The notes under the pieces are model-generated. The model did not search any database and was not told the origin of the DNA. It worked only from the letters and a program-made list of their open reading frames with translations. A program made the translations under genes and the position numbers. From Tolypothrix carrinoi HA7290-LM1 (GTDB lineage: Bacteria > Cyanobacteriota > Cyanobacteriia > Cyanobacteriales > Nostocaceae), in NCBI GenBank assembly GCA_019358935.1, contig JAHHIK010000002.1, forward strand, positions 105,507-169,506: a stretch of DNA of 64,000 nucleotides, written 5' to 3'. Shown here piece after piece: positions 15,028-27,444 of this stretch (the stretch's first letter is position 1; each line of letters begins with the position of its first letter).

Positions 15028-15699
15028 TCACGGTTTTTTCTCTAAGAAAGTGGAATTGGGATGAGATTTTTTTGCTAATTCATCGCTACGAAATTGAAAG
15101 CGGAAAACTACCTTGCGATCGCCTGGGTTATCGCGAGTCTTATCAGCTTCTATTTCTCCACGACCAGCGGCTAATACTTTTTGGCTTAAAGGCGCTTTTG
15201 TGGTAAAATTAATGTCAGAAAAAATGAACTTGGCAACTGATGAAGACCGCAACAAGCTAAGTTGTAAGTTAGTTTGGTAGTCTCCTTCAGAACTGGTGTG
15301 ACCTTCGATAATTACGCGGCTAATTTCTTTCTCGAATTCGGGTTTTGAGAAAATCACTCCACTGTAAACGGGAATAAAGCTACGAAGAAAAGCTTTACCT
15401 TCGGGTTTCAGTTCGGTACTTCCCTGAGCAAAAAGAATTGATTCTTGGATACTTACATCCCCGGTTTCTGGGTTGACTTTGACGTTAATGTTGTTACTTT
15501 TCATTTCTCCAACAACATTGCCAATTACCACTCTTTTTGGTGCATCTTTCTCTGCTAGCTGAAGTAGTGCAGTAATAAAAAGTAGCATAAAAAACATCAG
15601 TAAACCTGACATCAAATCGCCAATAGATAAATAGATACTAGAATCATCATCCTCAGCAATTTCTGATTCAAAAAAATCGCCTTTTGTGAAATCATTCAT
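15028..15699 (-). CDS. zorB: ZorB/MotB-like protein (single TM with conserved Asp plus OmpA-like peptidoglycan-binding domain)
   Basis: YLSIGDLMSGLLMFFMLL TM, ILFAQGSTEL, VIIEGHTSS..NLQLSLLRS and DRKVVFRF. Overlaps the zorA stop. Confidence 0.75.
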   Translation of the reverse strand: MNDFTKGDFFESEIAEDDDSSIYLSIGDLMSGLLMFFMLLFITALLQLAEKDAPKRVVIGNVVGEMKSNNINVKVNPETGDVSIQESILFAQGSTELKPEGKAFLRSFIPVYSGVIFSKPEFEKEISRVIIEGHTSSEGDYQTNLQLSLLRSSSVAKFIFSDINFTTKAPLSQKVLAAGRGEIEADKTRDNPGDRKVVFRFQFRSDELAKKSHPNSTFLEKKP

Positions 15700-17620
15700 G
15701 ATGGTTATTCCCGTTACCTATGTCATTGTTGTTTTTTACAGCTATTAGGACATTAGCTGTATGTAGTAAACCTCCGCAAACCCCAGCCATAGCAGTATCG
15801 GCTTGTTTGAAGAAGCTTTCTTGTAAGTCAACAGTTCGCTTCATAGAACTTTCAAGGTGACTATGCCAAGCTTGAAGACTATGGTCAAACTTTGCATTCA
15901 AATTCCTGTATGAATTGTCCACAATCTGCACTTGCTGTCCAATACCAGTAGCAAGTTTTTCGAGTTGTATCAGTCGTTGTGCATCGTTTAACCCAGCCGC
16001 ACTAACTAAGTTATTTATTTGTTGGACAGTTCCTTGAATTTTATTCATACTTTGGTCTACTTCTTGAGTCAACTCACTGCGTCTTTTAGCTTCATCTTGA
16101 AAAACGGTATCCAAATTAGTCACTACCGCAGCTAAACCATCGCGTTGTTTGCCTAGTGTCCCTTCCAGTAAGTTATTTTGTTGTGTAAAGAATGCCTGTA
16201 GATTCGCTTGATATTGTTCTCGGAATTGTGTTAAATCCTCTTGCACCGTTTGACGAGTTGCTGTGAGTGTGTGGTCGATATTTCCTAATGTGGCAATAAG
16301 ATTCTCTTGACTACGATTCATCAGTTGACAAGCTTGATTACCGACTGTTTCCAGAGTGTTAGTCTGCTGCTCGAAGGCTGTATTTGCTTGTGCGAGAATG
16401 TGGATAATTCCAGTCCGAGTAGCTTGAAGCATTTGCTTTTCTACTTCTGCTCGTTTTTGCAACGCTGTTTCAAGTTCCTCTCTAATTCCTCGGAATGTAT
16501 CAGCCGCATTTTCTGCACTTGCTTCAAAAGCACTTTGTTGAACTGTCATTCCTTGAATACTTTGCTCGATAGCTCGATTAATATCGTGAGCGGTTTGTTC
16601 TAAAACACCTTTTGTATCTGTTTGAAATTGATTCAAAGTTTGTTTGAGATTGTTAGCGAAGTCTTGGAGGCTAACTAAAGTCTCTTTTTGAAAGTTTTGA
16701 ATTGTGACGATGGAACTTGCCAAATCTTTGTGGAGAATTAACACAGCTTCGGAAGCTTGCTGAGTTAATTCTGCACTTTTATCTAAGCGATCGCCTATCG
16801 GTTCAAATACCTCAATTCGCAAATTTTTAATAAGTTCTTCTAAAACTCTTTGTCCCTGGTTTTCTTGGAGTTCTCTGAGCTTTTGCTGCTCTTGTAATAT
16901 TCCTCGCAGTGCTGGTAAAATAACTGACTGCATCTGCTGTCCTACAGCTTCTCCAATAGCTTCAGCACTCAAGTTTATCCCTGTGAACTTGTCTGCTACA
17001 AGGTTAAGAACTTGTGCTACTTCATAGTTAGCGTTGTCTGCTGTTTGTATGGCGATCGCTTTCAACTTTTGTCTTAAATCATCACGTCGTTTCTGACGTA
17101 GCGAATCACATATAAACAAAATTATCGTGAACAAGCTACCAGAACCAAGTCCCATCAAGGAAGTAGAAAAAGCTGTTTTCATTCCCACCAATAATTCCTT
17201 ACTGGAATTCATTAGCTGCTGGGAACTTGTTGTATCTAAATTGATTCCTTGTAACCCCTGTTGAATACCATAAAAGGTTCCCAAAACACCAATTGCAGTA
17301 CACAAGGTAGTCACGAAACGCAGGGAACTACGAGGTATTGGACGCGCTAAAACAACTGGATACTTTATAAGTATGAATTTGCCATTTTGAATTTGTAGAT
17401 GTTCGTCTTTCCACTGATGAAGCTTTAAATTATCCTGTTTTTGACTTTTTTTCGGATTTTTCAAACTCTGAATTGCAGCTGCTGTTTCTCCGCATTCTGA
17501 ATACCAATACTGCCATAATGTATAAAGCTCAACAATAATTGCCACAAATAATACAATGGCAGTTGCCCAATGAAAAGGCTCGCTATCCCAAACTATGCCC
17601 CAAATTTGTGCTAAATTCAC
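15692..17620 (-). CDS. zorA: ZorA-like MotA/TolQ/ExbB channel protein with a long cytoplasmic helical tail
   Basis: TAIGVLGTFYGI...GMKTAFSTSLMG TM motifs followed by ~450 aa of Q/E/L/A-rich helical tail; paired with the MotB-like gene. Confidence 0.75.
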   Translation of the reverse strand: MNLAQIWGIVWDSEPFHWATAIVLFVAIIVELYTLWQYWYSECGETAAAIQSLKNPKKSQKQDNLKLHQWKDEHLQIQNGKFILIKYPVVLARPIPRSSLRFVTTLCTAIGVLGTFYGIQQGLQGINLDTTSSQQLMNSSKELLVGMKTAFSTSLMGLGSGSLFTIILFICDSLRQKRRDDLRQKLKAIAIQTADNANYEVAQVLNLVADKFTGINLSAEAIGEAVGQQMQSVILPALRGILQEQQKLRELQENQGQRVLEELIKNLRIEVFEPIGDRLDKSAELTQQASEAVLILHKDLASSIVTIQNFQKETLVSLQDFANNLKQTLNQFQTDTKGVLEQTAHDINRAIEQSIQGMTVQQSAFEASAENAADTFRGIREELETALQKRAEVEKQMLQATRTGIIHILAQANTAFEQQTNTLETVGNQACQLMNRSQENLIATLGNIDHTLTATRQTVQEDLTQFREQYQANLQAFFTQQNNLLEGTLGKQRDGLAAVVTNLDTVFQDEAKRRSELTQEVDQSMNKIQGTVQQINNLVSAAGLNDAQRLIQLEKLATGIGQQVQIVDNSYRNLNAKFDHSLQAWHSHLESSMKRTVDLQESFFKQADTAMAGVCGGLLHTANVLIAVKNNNDIGNGNNHHE

Positions 17621-20264: not shown

Positions 20265-20448
20265 AATGCATTCCGATGCAATCTTAATGCATCCCGATAC
20301 AATGTTAATGCATCCCGATGCAATCTTAATGCATCCCGATACAATGTTAATGCATCCCGATGCAATCTTAATGCATCCCGATGCAATGTTAATGCATCCC
20401 GATGCAATCTTAATGCATCCCGATGCAATCTTAATGCATCCCCTTGCA
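20265..20448. repeat. 21-bp tandem array: 8 full units plus a partial unit
   Basis: Unit AATGCATCCCGAT(G/A)CAAT(C/G)TT, counted directly. Confidence 0.95.
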
Positions 20449-20755: not shown

Positions 20756-22858
20756 CTACCCCCATAAAAATCTTATAAGCCTTCGCAGCCAAGAGTTGCT
20801 AGCACTTATCTTAGCCCGCAAATTTGCCAAATTTTTACGGACAGTAACCGTATTTGGATGATTAACCCCCAAAACCCGCTCACACAGTTCTAAAGCTTGG
20901 ATAAACAGCGGTTCGGCTTCACTGTAGCGTCCTTGGGAATCGTAGAGATTAGCCAAGTTGTTCAAGCTGGTGGCAACATCGGGATGTTCTTCTCCCAGCA
21001 GGCGTTTTCGCAGTTCTAAAGCTTGGATATGCAGCGGTTCGGCATCACTGTAGCGTCCTTGGGAATAGTAGAGTCCTGCCAAGTTGTTCAAGCTGGTGGC
21101 AACATCGGGATGTTCTTCTCCCAGCAGGCGTTTTCGCAGTGCTAAAGCTTGGATATGCAGCGGTTCGGCTTCACTGTAGCGTCCTTGGGAATAGTAGAGT
21201 CCTGCCAAGTTGTTCAAGCTCATGGCAACATGGGGATGTTCTTCTCCCAGCAGGGGTTTAGAAAGTGCTAAAGCTTGGATAAACAGCGGTTCGGCTTCAC
21301 TGTAGCGTCCTTGGGAATTGTAGAGATTAGCCAAGTTGTTCAAGCGAATGGCTACATCGGGATGTTCTTCTCCCAGCAGGCGTTTAGAAAGTGCTAAAGC
21401 TTGGATATACAGCGGTTCGGCTTCAGTGTAGCGTCCTTGGGAATTGTACAGATAAGCCAAGTTGTTCAAGCTGGTGGCTACATGGGGATGTTCTTCTCCC
21501 AGACTGGCTCTGACTACTTCTACACACTGCTTGAACCAAGGTTCGGCGATCGCATACAAACCCTGTCCATGATAGAATCTGCCCAAACCGACGAAAACCG
21601 AAATTAAATCTTCATCACTCACCGCATCAGTGAGATTTTGTGCCACTTCTGTTAAATGGGGTATGGCATCTTGCACTGACTTGATCTTCTCAAGGGTGGG
21701 TGTGTCGGGTATTTGCTGGGCAACTTTTATAAATACAGCCGCAAAATTTCTTCGGAAGTCATCTGTGTTTTCTAATGCTGCTAACTTTGCCTTGAGAAAT
21801 TCCCGAATTAAAGGATGTATTTTGTAGCAAGCTTGTTTCTCTTGCAGGCTTTCAATTAAATAACGCTTGTAAAGTTGCTTTTTGGCTTCGTTAATGTCTG
21901 ATGTACAATTAAGCAAATCAGTTGCAGATTCTACGAATTTCCAAGAAATAACATCTGGGGCAAATAAACTCAAATACGCTCCCACACGCTGGGTTATCGG
22001 CTTGAGTTGTTGCCAGCTTAATTCAAATGCGGCTTTCACCCCTTGCGTTGAAGGGTTTATTGCTTCATCTTCCAGTCGCTGGGCTTTCAGCCTTTGTAAC
22101 ATCTCTGCTAGAGATAAATCTGGATCTTCGTCTAAATACTGCCGTACTAATTGCAACCCCAAGGGCAGATATCCCAACCATTGGCACAATTTTTCTGCAT
22201 CAACTCGTTTTTTACCTTTTAATGGCAGCAATTGCAAAGCTTTATCTGGTGGTAGTACATTCAGAGGTAATTCCTGCACATTGTCGAGGTTTCGCAAGCG
22301 GGTTGTCAGCAATACGCGGAAGCGGTTAGTTGTTGGTAGTAGCGTTTGACAACTTTCCCAATTTTCATCAGTCACATCATCTAATACTACCAACACCAGC
22401 TTTTCTGCTGGTTGCCAGTTTTGCCAACACCAGGCTACCTGTTCCTGAAGAGTCAGCAGTCTTTCTCCCTGTTTTTGCGGTACTTCCTGCATGTATAACT
22501 GGACAATCTCTAATATATCCGCTGCCAAATTCGATTTCTTCGCATTTAACCAGCAAATACCCCCAGGATAATCTTTTTCATGTCCTAGAGCATATTGCGT
22601 CGCGAGTTCGGTTTTGCCGATTCCACCCATACCCGCTATTGCCGAAATTGCGACAGTACCAGGTTGCTGCAATTTTTCATGCAGCGTGGTGAGTTCCTGT
22701 TCTCGTCCAACAAAGTTAGCGATGCCTCGATTAGGAATATATTTTATGGGATTTGGTGGAGAAGTTCGTTGGGGTTGCCCAAAATTGATATTTGGGTTAT
22801 GGATGTTGACACTTCCGCCCTTAATATTTACACCTTGCCAATTTTCGTTGTTAGTCAT
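20756..22858 (-). CDS. NLR-like STAND NTPase: short N-terminal motif, NB-ARC and TPR repeats
   Basis: FVGREQEL, Walker A GMGGIGKT, Walker B LVVLDDV, LLTTR, GYLPLGL and IHPLIREF, then HPxVAxSLNNLA TPRs. Confidence 0.92.
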   Translation of the reverse strand: MTNNENWQGVNIKGGSVNIHNPNINFGQPQRTSPPNPIKYIPNRGIANFVGREQELTTLHEKLQQPGTVAISAIAGMGGIGKTELATQYALGHEKDYPGGICWLNAKKSNLAADILEIVQLYMQEVPQKQGERLLTLQEQVAWCWQNWQPAEKLVLVVLDDVTDENWESCQTLLPTTNRFRVLLTTRLRNLDNVQELPLNVLPPDKALQLLPLKGKKRVDAEKLCQWLGYLPLGLQLVRQYLDEDPDLSLAEMLQRLKAQRLEDEAINPSTQGVKAAFELSWQQLKPITQRVGAYLSLFAPDVISWKFVESATDLLNCTSDINEAKKQLYKRYLIESLQEKQACYKIHPLIREFLKAKLAALENTDDFRRNFAAVFIKVAQQIPDTPTLEKIKSVQDAIPHLTEVAQNLTDAVSDEDLISVFVGLGRFYHGQGLYAIAEPWFKQCVEVVRASLGEEHPHVATSLNNLAYLYNSQGRYTEAEPLYIQALALSKRLLGEEHPDVAIRLNNLANLYNSQGRYSEAEPLFIQALALSKPLLGEEHPHVAMSLNNLAGLYYSQGRYSEAEPLHIQALALRKRLLGEEHPDVATSLNNLAGLYYSQGRYSDAEPLHIQALELRKRLLGEEHPDVATSLNNLANLYDSQGRYSEAEPLFIQALELCERVLGVNHPNTVTVRKNLANLRAKISASNSWLRRLIRFLWG
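20890..21500 (-). repeat. Five near-identical 126-bp (42-aa) TPR units inside the NLR
   Basis: GGATGTTCTTCTCCCA recurs at 20982, 21108, 21234, 21360 and 21486. Confidence 0.9.
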
Positions 22859-22973
22859 GAGTGTGTTGCTGAGTCAAAATATGAATTAGCCTCACGCAAA
22901 GGCGCAAAGGCGCAAAGAGTAAGAGTTTCAGATATATTTCATATCCGCGCTTCAGCAATGCCAGGATAGGTAT

Positions 22974-23408
22974 TTATTTGCTGCGAAAGTCTAAATTAGG
23001 TTTATTAATGGTGTTATTTCCGCCCTTAATATTTATCCCTTGCCAATTTTCGTTAATGATTCCTGGGCGTTGTGCCTGCACCATCTGTGTTAAATCTTGA
23101 ATAGCCTTCTCCAGTTGAGGATTTGTCTTTGCGGCTTGGTTTACATCATTTCCCAAAGCTTCCACTGCCGCTTTTATCTCTGGATCTGCTTGCGCTGCTT
23201 TCTCTATCTCTAAAACAGCGACACCAATATCTTCTCGCCCTGCTGCTGGTAAAGCTGCTAAAGTCGCTACAGTATCAGGCGATTTAGCTTGTAGCTTTTG
23301 TTTGGCATAATCAAGCCCTGCATCAAAAGCCTTTTCTATACCCCAATCAGCAAATTTGCCGCCTAAATATAGTCCTAACGCGATCGCTCCAGCGGTTAAC
23401 GGTTCCAT
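22974..23408 (-). CDS. Small Bell-domain-like helical protein with a C-terminal putative amyloid motif
   Basis: Hydrophobic N-terminal helix MEPLTAGAIALG and a helical body with ..DPEIKAAVEAL. The C-terminal NENWQGINIKGGNNTINKPNLDF is shared with the NLR N-terminus. Confidence 0.7.
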   Translation of the reverse strand: MEPLTAGAIALGLYLGGKFADWGIEKAFDAGLDYAKQKLQAKSPDTVATLAALPAAGREDIGVAVLEIEKAAQADPEIKAAVEALGNDVNQAAKTNPQLEKAIQDLTQMVQAQRPGIINENWQGINIKGGNNTINKPNLDFRSK

Positions 23409-23595: not shown

Positions 23596-23711
23596 TACAG
23601 CGATTTTCACCTAAATGAACCACATTATTTTTATCTCACGCAAAGGCGCAAAGGCGCAAAGGAAGAAAGAAAGGAAGAAAAGTGTGGTCTAAATACATGA
23701 AAATTGCTGTA
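23596..23711. mobile_element. TA-bounded MITE overlapping the 3' end of the HsdR-N-like gene
   Basis: TACAGCGATTTTCA...TGAAAATTGCTGTA (13/14 inverted match); internal CGCAAAGG repeats. Confidence 0.6.
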
Positions 23712-24381
23712 AACCAGAGCGATCGCCTATTCCTGACAACTGAAAATCTGGTAGTTGGCAAATGGCTTTGAGAACTTGCAATAATTCAATTGCATCTGGA
23801 GATTCATTCAAGTTCAGTAATGGCATTAACTGATAAGTTGGCGGTGTACTTTGTCTAAGATAAACATATTGATAACGCAGTCCATTCGTTATCAATCCCC
23901 ATACAGATTCTTGCTGTTCTAAACTTTTATAAGCGTAGGTAAGCAGTTGTGGTAAACCCTGAAGCACGTCAGCTAAACTATTTTTCGTCTCAATTACTAA
24001 CACCCAAAAAGGCGGCATAGTAATTGCCTGAGCGTTGTTGATTGCTAAAATATCCATGCGTCCTTTAATATTTGTATCCTCGTCTTCGATGGAAATAGCA
24101 ATTACATCCTCCATCGTCAAGCGAATCAGCACATCATAAAATCCAGCCAATCGCATTAATGGGGCAAGTGTCAAAAATTTCACTAATCCTTCCGAAACTT
24201 TTCCCGCTGCTAGGTAACGTTGAAAGTCATTGCTAATCCGCAATAAATCTTGCTGTTCAAACTCACTCAGAGGTTGTAAAGTTAAGTAGTCTGTAAATGA
24301 GCCAATTGGCTGTTCTTCCAGCTTCAGCAAGCGATGAACGTCGTTTAAGAATAGGTTACTAGCTTCTACGGTGAGTGTCAT
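23689..24381 (-). CDS. Stand-alone type I restriction HsdR N-terminal-like PD-(D/E)XK protein
   Basis: GRMDILAI...VLVIETKN...QLLTYA...GLITNG. Confidence 0.75.
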   Translation of the reverse strand: MTLTVEASNLFLNDVHRLLKLEEQPIGSFTDYLTLQPLSEFEQQDLLRISNDFQRYLAAGKVSEGLVKFLTLAPLMRLAGFYDVLIRLTMEDVIAISIEDEDTNIKGRMDILAINNAQAITMPPFWVLVIETKNSLADVLQGLPQLLTYAYKSLEQQESVWGLITNGLRYQYVYLRQSTPPTYQLMPLLNLNESPDAIELLQVLKAICQLPDFQLSGIGDRSGLQQFSCI

Positions 24382-26807: not shown

Positions 26808-27152
26808 GTGGAAGCACAACCTAGAGAAATCCGAAACTACCGAACAGTAGACGAGAGAATTCCTTTTGAAGAGTGGCTTGATTCTCTACGGGATAGAAGA
26901 GCCAGAGCTAAAATTAGAAATAGGCTTACACGAGTCGAATCAGGTAACTTGGGAGATTATCGCTCAGTAGGGGAAGGAGTTTTTGAACTGAGAATTGATT
27001 ATGCTTCCGGTTATCGTGTTTATTTTGGGCAAATAGGGTCAACGATAATAGTTATACTCTGTGGCGGAGATAAAAGTACACAAGAACAGGACATTCTTAC
27101 AGCTAAGGAATATTGGAGAGATTATGAAAGACGTGAAAACCCCAACCAGTAG
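26808..27152 (+). CDS. RelE/ParE/HigB-family toxin (addiction module killer protein)
   Basis: FEEWLDSLRD..GNLGDYRSVGEGVFELRIDYASGYRVYF..LCGGDKSTQEQDI. Confidence 0.9.
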   Translation: MEAQPREIRNYRTVDERIPFEEWLDSLRDRRARAKIRNRLTRVESGNLGDYRSVGEGVFELRIDYASGYRVYFGQIGSTIIVILCGGDKSTQEQDILTAKEYWRDYERRENPNQ

Positions 27153-27444
27153 CAGTTACAAAGAATACCTGATTTCGTCTCTCAAAGATCCTCAAGAAGC
27201 TGCTGGTTATCTTGAGACTTTTTTAGAATTAGAAGAACAAGAGAGTGAACCTGAACTATTGCGATCGGCGTTAAAAGATGTGGTTGATGCGCGTTTGCTG
27301 TCAGATAATCTCTCACAAGAAGCTAAACAGCATTATGAACAGCTTGATAAGATGCTGTCAGAAACTGGTGGAACTGAAATTTACACTTTGATAGAGTTTT
27401 TGGATGCTCTTGGATATCGCATTGCGTTAGTACCGAAAGATTGA
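27124..27444 (+). CDS. Cognate antitoxin (addiction module antidote-like)
   Basis: YLISSLKDPQEAAGYLE...ALKDVVDAR...LDALGYRI; overlaps the toxin 3' end; start set at ATG 27124. Confidence 0.75.
   Translation: MKDVKTPTSSSYKEYLISSLKDPQEAAGYLETFLELEEQESEPELLRSALKDVVDARLLSDNLSQEAKQHYEQLDKMLSETGGTEIYTLIEFLDALGYRIALVPKD

Follow-up and report, generated by a model that had tools for sequence, protein, structure and literature searches.

Two adjacent genes of the cyanobacterium Tolypothrix carrinoi HA7290-LM1 are a new example of a published kind of gene pair, in which a small Bell-type effector and an NLR-like sensor share a motif of an already known family, BASS7. The pair lies in the window, by which we mean the whole 64,000-nucleotide stretch of DNA analyzed here (contig JAHHIK010000002.1, positions 105,507 to 169,506). 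It consists of a gene for an effector of 144 amino acids (aa) and, collinear with it and 115 bp downstream, a gene for an NLR-like STAND protein of 700 aa that has NB-ARC and TPR regions. Judged from the sequence, the locus very probably belongs to the BASS7 Bell/NLR class. It is also likely, if somewhat less firmly so, that the locus is a two-gene NLR/effector module of the Bell/BASS class that works in the way proposed below. A first-pass annotation of the window had suggested an amyloid-signaling type of Bell/NLR pair, and the layout, the Bell homology, and the recurrence of the pair in other genomes all support that part. Its further suggestion, that the motif stood outside the named BASS families and might be a new one, was wrong, since the motif is listed as C12, or BASS7, in the published data of Dyrka et al. 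2021 (PMC8086366).

The two genes and the motif they share

In the list of open reading frames (ORFs), the effector gene occupies positions 22974..23408 and the NLR gene positions 20756..22858, with a spacer of 115 bp between them (22859..22973). This is the arrangement that the first-pass annotation had described, and its only slip concerned the strand, which is minus for both genes. The effector begins MEPLTAGAIALGLYLGGKF / MEPLTAGAIALGLYLGG and ends IINENWQGINIKGGNNTINKPNLDFRSK, and its motif, NENWQGINIKGGNNTINKPNLDF, covers residues 119-141 (22986..23054). The N-terminus of the NLR reads MTNNENWQGVNIKGGSVNIHNPNINF, with the motif NENWQGVNIKGGSVNIHNPNINF at residues 4-26 (22781..22849). When the two segments were compared directly with BLASTP, 15/23 residues were identical and 20/23 positive, with an E value of 5e-9 for this single comparison. 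At the DNA level, the copies agree at 55/69 nt, with 2 differences in the first 36 nt. A six-frame regular-expression scan of the genome (7,955,746 bases) returned two matches to the strict motif, both at this locus. With the looser core NW[QKRHN]G[IV], 24 matches were returned, of which the other 22 were unrelated. Because the strict motif occurs in the genome at these two places only, the sharing, which the first-pass annotation had also noted, is not due to chance; it is real and specific.

The assignment to BASS7 relies on published sequences. BASS1 to BASS10 have been described as motifs common to the C-terminus of Bell proteins and the N-terminus of the adjacent NLR, with BASS7 to BASS10 specific to Cyanobacteria (Dyrka et al. 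2020, bioRxiv 10.1101/2020.01.06.895854, in the portions available to us). In the searched part of supplement 1 of Dyrka et al. 2021, sequences with ENW[QK]GINIKGG, including both effector-side tails and NLR-side N-termini, are labeled C12, and the README of the same supplement equates C12 with BASS7. There, the motif strings occur 86, 29, and 85 times under C12; examples are ...VIENWQGINIKGGKPIIKNNTLNFGSK on the effector side and MSENWHGINIKGGKNEIKGNTFIFNSTEK on the NLR side. The pattern ENW[QK]GINIKGG..T....F.F is common to the window's pair and to published BASS7. Entry A0A0T7BPG0 of the BASS7 file (ucluster_12), ...QAQKPTIINENWQGINIKGGTNTINNNTFNFGK, is letter for letter the C-terminus of P0017, one of the effector homologues described below, and the tail of another homologue, P0107, matches the published BASS7 entry A0A1U7IAM2. 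The tail of the effector's nearest relative had no match in the searched part of the supplement, so the exact protein of the window is absent from that part. A search of the full texts of papers for the motif strings matched unrelated papers only, as the motif stands in the supplement and not in the main texts. With about 23 residues rich in N, G, Q, and I, the motif also agrees with the description of BASS in the portions of Dyrka et al. 2020 available to us.

Other assignments were considered and set aside. An identity with RHIM or BASS3, for which the first-pass annotation had proposed a check, is not borne out: neither motif copy contains an [IV]Q[IV]G core, and there is no RHIM match in Pfam. 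A motif of the HET-s type (HRAM) with two pseudo-repeats is likewise rejected, since the genome-wide scan found the effector and the NLR to carry a single copy each. A new motif family is rejected by the identity with published BASS7 (C12).

The effector is a helical protein of the Bell family; its first helix is hydrophobic, glutamate stands at position 2, and the C-terminal BASS7 tail is disordered. Bell proteins have been characterized as about 120-140 aa long, hydrophobic in their first helix, and acidic at residue 2 or 3 (Dyrka et al. 2020, same portions), and the effector agrees with this description in length, in its hydrophobic N-terminal helix, and in its Glu-2. It also carries a "MEPIS"-type region at its N-terminus. 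A search of 5.8 billion proteins returned 115 homologues of 79-252 aa, and wherever an organism was named, it was cyanobacterial; the closest named homologue, from Hassallia byssoidea, is 97% identical. Nearly all of the homologues begin with ME(P)LTAGAIAL, and in 43 aligned sequences M1, E2, P3, T5, and G7 are conserved at 90% or above. Most end in BASS7, and others carry different N/Q/G-rich tails on the same N-terminal domain. Such modularity, with one Bell N-terminus and varied tails, is the pattern described for BASS. P0017 is 55% identical to the effector over 90% of the query (E 9.4e-34). Because the tails of P0017 and P0107 are in the published BASS7 set, the effector is a full-length homologue of proteins that the authors themselves classed as Bell-BASS7; Bell homology was judged through these two members of the published Bell-side BASS7 file.

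Family databases were of little help with this protein. The effector has no match to a Pfam, NCBIfam, or PADLOC family, and for all 43 aligned homologues Pfam returned no more than scattered hits to helical families, below threshold. An AlphaFold2 model built from the 43 sequences is all-helical over residues 3-113, with helices at 3-15, 18-22, 25-42, 44-51, 55-74, 76-95, and 97-113. Together with homologue conservation, this model delimits a Bell-like helical domain at residues 1-113 (23070..23408, minus strand). The tail, residues 115-140, has a predicted local distance difference test (pLDDT) score below 50. Bell folds are reported to vary in topology, with what they share lying chiefly in the "MEPIS" region at the N-terminus (Ibarlosa et al. 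2024, bioRxiv 10.1101/2024.11.07.622273, in the portions available to us).

The genome contains two other Bell-like sequences. One (L002, G000:C69:32948-33346) encodes 157 aa with a different tail motif and ends TGA CTA; its frame closes after 10 codons, and there is no partner in reach. The other (L004, G000:C175) is a 69-aa fragment on a short contig.

The downstream protein is an NB-ARC/TPR STAND NTPase whose sole N-terminal appendage, as far as can be read from its sequence, is the BASS7 motif. The NB-ARC domain (Pfam PF00931, E 6.7e-16) spans residues 53-222 (22193..22702, minus strand). Because only 52 residues, comprising the motif and a short linker, precede it, the NLR has no N-terminal enzymatic domain, as the first-pass annotation had stated. 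The Walker A sequence GMGGIGKT is found at residues 76-83, and a Walker B-like stretch, LVLVVLDD, at about residues 154-161. C-terminal to the NB-ARC domain, Pfam recognizes six TPR_12/TPR_10 stretches (TPR_12 E 8.1e-95) in a sensor region at residues ~401-682 (20813..21658, minus strand). The DNA that encodes part of it (20882-21502) is a 126-bp tandem repeat with 4.9 copies and 91% matches. A search with NLR residues 1-45 returned two proteins, too few for counting motifs on the NLR side. One NLR relative, 757 aa long and named by its source as Hassallia byssoidea, is 84% identical over these residues. The difference between 757 and 700 aa in so close a relative, along with the near-identical TPR repeats, suggests a change of repeat number in the sensor.

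Recurrence and co-variation in other genomes

Genome searches were carried out within one order, the same as that of the host. Here, the two-gene, two-motif pair recurs collinearly in other genomes, and its partner copies co-vary. A profile of the effector family matched 96 of 301 sampled genomes. Among the 29 best-scoring foreign loci, eight effectors had a BASS7 end, and in seven of these eight, a collinear NLR starting with BASS7 followed. A degenerate DNA pattern of the motif core was found in 22 of 401 genomes, while the reversed control pattern was found in 1 of 401. In 11 of the 22 motif-bearing genomes, both motif copies lie collinearly in one locus, 82-830 nt apart; the first-pass annotation had named the lack of such conservation as a reason to abandon its proposal. 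The partner copy has diverged in another 2/22, and in 1/22 the pair is apparently split over two contig ends. The remainder comprises 4/22 genomes of a type with an in-frame TGA codon, discussed in the last section, and 4/22 with no NLR in reach.

Across 13 aligned NLR N-termini, N6, W7, and G9 of the motif are invariant, and E5, Q8, N11, K13, and G15 are at least 90% conserved. Identity between the two copies averaged 15.2/23 within the 11 pairs versus 13.1/23 between pairs. The true partner ranked first in six of the 11, and none of 20,000 permutations reached the observed sum. The first-pass annotation had also considered that homologues might be single fused ORFs with the motif duplicated at a gene split. 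Among the longer forms of the Bell family, we found no Bell-NLR fusion bearing the motif; the only BASS7 fusions found were three proteins of about 349 aa (P0118-P0120) in which a CHAT (caspase-like) domain comes first, followed by a Bell domain and a BASS7 tail at the C-terminus.

Proposed mechanism and competing explanations

The closest counterparts of the locus are the BASS7 Bell/NLR pairs themselves (Dyrka et al. 2020, with data in PMC8086366, as far as these sources were available to us). They have the same motif, effector family, NB-ARC/TPR partner, collinear gene order, and cyanobacterial hosts, and nothing essential differs; the spacer is 115 bp here, while in 57% of the published pairs it is 10 bp or less. 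Fungal NWD2/HET-S (HRAM) and other NLR/HeLo or Hell pairs follow the same principle, in that the N-terminal motif of the NLR equals the C-terminal motif of the effector. In these pairs, too, the genes are adjacent, and the effector is helical, targets the membrane, and has a first helix that is hydrophobic. NWD2/HET-S differs in motif family and kingdom, and HET-S has two pseudo-repeats, where each protein here has a single copy of the motif. NWD2 carries WD40 repeats where this NLR has TPR. The BASS3, RHIM, and PP motifs share the genomic logic and a similar amino-acid bias, although the RHIM-like core is missing here. Finally, the Bab/Agp system of E. coli combines a small Bell-related effector, with a "MEPIS"-type N-terminus and a C-terminal BASS motif, with a neighboring sensor that has the same motif at its N-terminus. 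It differs by a shorter effector domain (~80 aa, "Babybell") and in motif family (BASS11), and in the available portions of Ibarlosa et al. 2024, it is the only system of the kind with a demonstrated antiphage function.

We infer the mechanism from analogy with NWD2/HET-S, with BASS1 and BASS3, and with Bab/Agp. BASS1 and BASS3 behave as prions in Podospora and form fibrils in vitro, and the NLR-side motif converts the Bell-side motif (Dyrka et al. 2020, portions available). With Bab/Agp, phage infection triggers amyloid signaling in E. coli, upon which the effector relocates to the periphery of the cell and kills it; for killing, the "MEPIS" region at the N-terminus is required (Ibarlosa et al. 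2024, portions available). By extension, the TPR array of the present NLR would sense a trigger or ligand, and its NB-ARC domain would then oligomerize and gather several N-terminal BASS7 tails. The clustered tails may take up a cross-beta fold and template the same-type tail of the free effector. This conversion would free the hydrophobic Bell helix 1 to attack the membrane, resulting in cell death. Prion-like behavior, cell death, and immunity are thus attributed to the pair by analogy; on that footing, amyloid templating and membrane killing are fairly probable, and abortive defense against phage is the likely role. A complex prediction with NLR residues 1-45 and effector residues 100-144 scored 0.02, which permits no call for or against binding.

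The surroundings of the pair offer some context. Three kilobases downstream of the NLR gene lies a pair of ZorA1-like (642 aa, E 4.7e-235) and ZorB1-like (223 aa, E 2.3e-72) genes (15028-17620, minus strand). ZorC and ZorD do not follow this pair, and the next 1.4 kb contains only ORFs of up to 87 aa. Directly upstream of the effector, a 230-aa gene (23689-24381, minus strand) has a weak PD-(D/E)xK nuclease-like match (PADLOC PD_DExK, E 5.6e-7). Further away, a small Gp49/HigB-like gene (26808-27444, plus strand) is overlapped by a second small ORF, and the two are probably a toxin-antitoxin pair.

Several observations weigh against the reading of the locus as a working Bell/BASS7 module. No BASS7 experiments were found in the literature searched, where mentions are confined to the two Dyrka papers. 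The mean pLDDT of the effector model is 66.5, a middling confidence. The structure search that the first-pass annotation had called for gave an all-helical model but no solved structure to match it, whether of the HeLo, Hell, and MLKL four-helix-bundle folds to which Bell would be related or of another kind (Foldseek, no PDB match at E <= 0.001; VIA-align wide, none at Z >= 5), and a profile search of PDB sequences with the effector returned only designed coiled coils and noise. A scan of the minus strand of the spacer found no promoter-like or terminator-like site, the promoter signal being no better than in shuffled sequences. A search of sequencing runs gave one DNA run with 0.93 of the sampled words, which may be the sample of origin, and a single RNA run with 0.05 of them, and thus yielded no RNA evidence for the locus. 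Apart from the genes named above, the neighbors are mostly housekeeping genes, and the region is not a clear defense island. The co-variation of partners could also stem from gene conversion, given the 2 differences in the first 36 nt, and the genomes compared are related and therefore not independent samples, so that kinship may add to it.

Of the alternatives, one retains the shared motif and changes its chemistry. The motif might serve as a homotypic adaptor, binding in an ordinary, non-amyloid way (for example, by strand pairing within an oligomer) with no self-propagating, prion-like fold. This would fit with the absence of any BASS7 fibril report in the literature searched, with the lack of structure that the model gives to the effector tail, and with weak matches of 2 of the 43 family members to Pfam EAD11 (Effector-associated domain, best E 7.1e-4). 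The Effector-associated domain class is named for adaptor-like sharing between effectors and NTPases. We nonetheless regard ordinary binding as improbable: the motif belongs to a published amyloid-signaling family, has the length and the N/G/Q/I-rich composition described for BASS, and, in the accounts available to us, all of the BASS families assayed so far (1, 3, and 11) formed amyloid. The conservation of both copies bears on a different idea, namely that the second copy plays no part in signaling and arose only as a by-product, through a duplication or gene conversion that took place locally where genes had once been fused or split. Motifs on both partners are kept in 11-13 genomes from several families of the order, with flanks that have diverged; partner copies co-vary; and among 28 stop-ended loci, there was none with an adjacent, collinear P-loop NLR that lacked both a motif of its own and an in-frame TGA link. 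Against these, the by-product explanation can point to the near-identity of the first half of the two copies at the DNA level and to relatives in which the NLR body follows in frame directly after a single motif copy, from which a duplication could have made the two-gene form. We consider it very improbable.

Even if the module works as proposed, its purpose may not be phage defense. It could take part in developmental or stress-induced death of cells in the filament, or in non-kin recognition, and we give such a role a small but real chance. Bell and BASS have been linked to multicellular lifestyles (Dyrka et al. 2020, portions available), and the mostly housekeeping surroundings agree with a function outside of defense. 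However, Bab/Agp, the sole case in which a Bell-type effector carrying a BASS motif was put to a functional test (in the portions of that report available to us), is an antiphage abortive-infection system, and the ZorAB-like pair, the PD-(D/E)xK-like gene, and the HigB-like toxin are all nearby.

Repeats and tRNAs were recorded as well. Just downstream of the NLR gene, a 21-bp tandem repeat (20265-20442; 8.5 copies, 92% identity) is the source of spurious repetitive ORFs in several frames. A dispersed 23-nt repeat, in which an octamer-like unit stands three times before GTGAG, occurs 14 times in the genome. One copy (22891-22913, minus strand) lies in the spacer, about 35 nt before the NLR start codon. 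Another (23635-23657, minus strand) lies about 230 nt before the effector start, within a longer element common to three other contigs. ARAGORN predicted 68 tRNAs in the host genome, with many duplicated isoacceptors, including one with a CUA (amber-reading) anticodon labeled "Pyl" and one with a four-base anticodon; none with a UCA anticodon was predicted.

An in-frame TGA architecture in relatives

Some relatives of the pair are organized differently. In four BASS7 genomes, there is one motif copy, the effector ORF ends ...NF-TGA, and an NB-ARC body then continues in the same frame, as in the junction ...GNTLNF(stop)LQPPQGE...LPLSGVEKFVGREEEL...GMGGVGKTE. We inspected 46 unique Bell loci from the one order, and took the 29 best-scoring foreign loci as an unbiased set. 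Within this set, the effector ends in a stop at 28 loci (20 TGA, 7 TAA, and 1 TAG), and the remaining one is a plain fusion. The same frame stays open for at least 120 codons past the stop in 17 of the 28, and all 17 of these stops are TGA. In 14 loci, the open frame reaches 455-499 codons or runs off the fetched DNA, and 13 of these have a P-loop within 160 residues; where more DNA was fetched, the full-length frames run to 675-1357 codons. By comparison, 1 of 82 other ORFs of at least 100 aa from the same loci has such a continuation, with stops distributed as 26 TGA, 28 TAA, and 28 TAG.

The junction itself is conserved. The sequence (N/T)F TGA CTR NAG TCG CCN recurs across different BASS motifs and across NB-ARC and NACHT-like bodies, and reads as F-stop-L-x-S-P-E-R-E-R-V-K-S-N-P-P..I-P-Y-x-G...F-V-G-R in protein. 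The leucine codon after TGA varies synonymously (CTA, CTG, or CTC), and C directly follows the stop in 14 of the 17 loci. The linker that follows TGA is homologous to the linker after the NLR-side motif in two-gene NLRs. The NLR body behind the TGA lacks a separate motif and, in many cases, a separate start codon; in L011, L029, and L030, the first ATG, GTG, or TTG past the TGA stands at or beyond Walker A. Loci of this type are L007/L053/L069, L049/L070, L050/L071, L039/L072, L065, L064, L005, L011, L014, L017, L018, and L020, and further L024, L025, L026, L029, L030, and L031, with the junction at about nt 1500-1600 of each 3-kb locus. An adjacent P-loop NLR with neither a motif of its own nor a TGA link was not seen in the sampled Bell loci.

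The same TGA junction is also followed by in-frame bodies that are not NLRs, in L021/L073 (G287), L038, L019, L045, L033, and L027. One of these bodies, with GTG immediately following the TGA, is a 455-aa membrane protein of CHASE2-like appearance; the others are frames of 126-361 codons.

A quick tree of 23 NLR N-terminal halves (L067, L068, and L030 were dropped from 26 rows) interleaves the two architectures. It needs six changes, of which at least three are forced by well-supported branches, and includes one sister pair within a single genome. This sequence-based tree suggests repeated switches between the two-gene and the in-frame TGA forms. The window's locus is not of the TGA type: its effector stops with TAA, 40 in-frame codons follow, and the NLR has its own ATG and motif.

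Other ways of reading through the junction were examined. Selenocysteine was rejected, as tRNA-Sec (RF01852) scored above the cut-off in none of five TGA-type genomes, where the best sub-threshold matches were tRNA-Leu and tRNA-Ser. A +1 or -1 frameshift was rejected too, as it is the zero frame that stays open over the long stretch, with the other two closing within 62 codons. Single-sequence folds showed no common hairpin after the TGA. According to PMC5289835 (introduction), it is documented for bacteria that UGA terminates weakly when a C comes next and that tRNA-Trp can misread this codon. In the available portions of the main text of Dyrka et al. 2020, we saw neither readthrough nor stop codons mentioned, and the other literature searched had nothing on this either. 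From the sequences, we lean slightly towards a second, undescribed Bell/BASS/NLR architecture, also within BASS7, as the most economical account; in it, the leaky stop ...(N/T)F-TGA-CTR-NAG-TCG-CC would allow programmed UGA readthrough, and the window's pair would be the unlinked alternative. Readthrough would then make a little Bell-BASS-NLR fusion as sensor and nucleator, and normal termination much free Bell-BASS as executioner.

The locus itself is a modest finding. What it contributes is a single clean and intact BASS7 Bell/NLR pair, present once in its genome, from a culturable type of filamentous cyanobacterial lineage, and an intact single pair near ZorAB-like genes is a reasonable object in which to test the role of Bell/NLR systems in cyanobacteria. 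The in-frame TGA architecture merits a separate study. If it is true recoding, it would represent a rare bacterial example of programmed stop-codon readthrough and would explain why many Bell genes stand beside NLRs without a matching motif. It would also offer a simple control of the ratio of sensor to executioner, with both copies of the motif kept identical.

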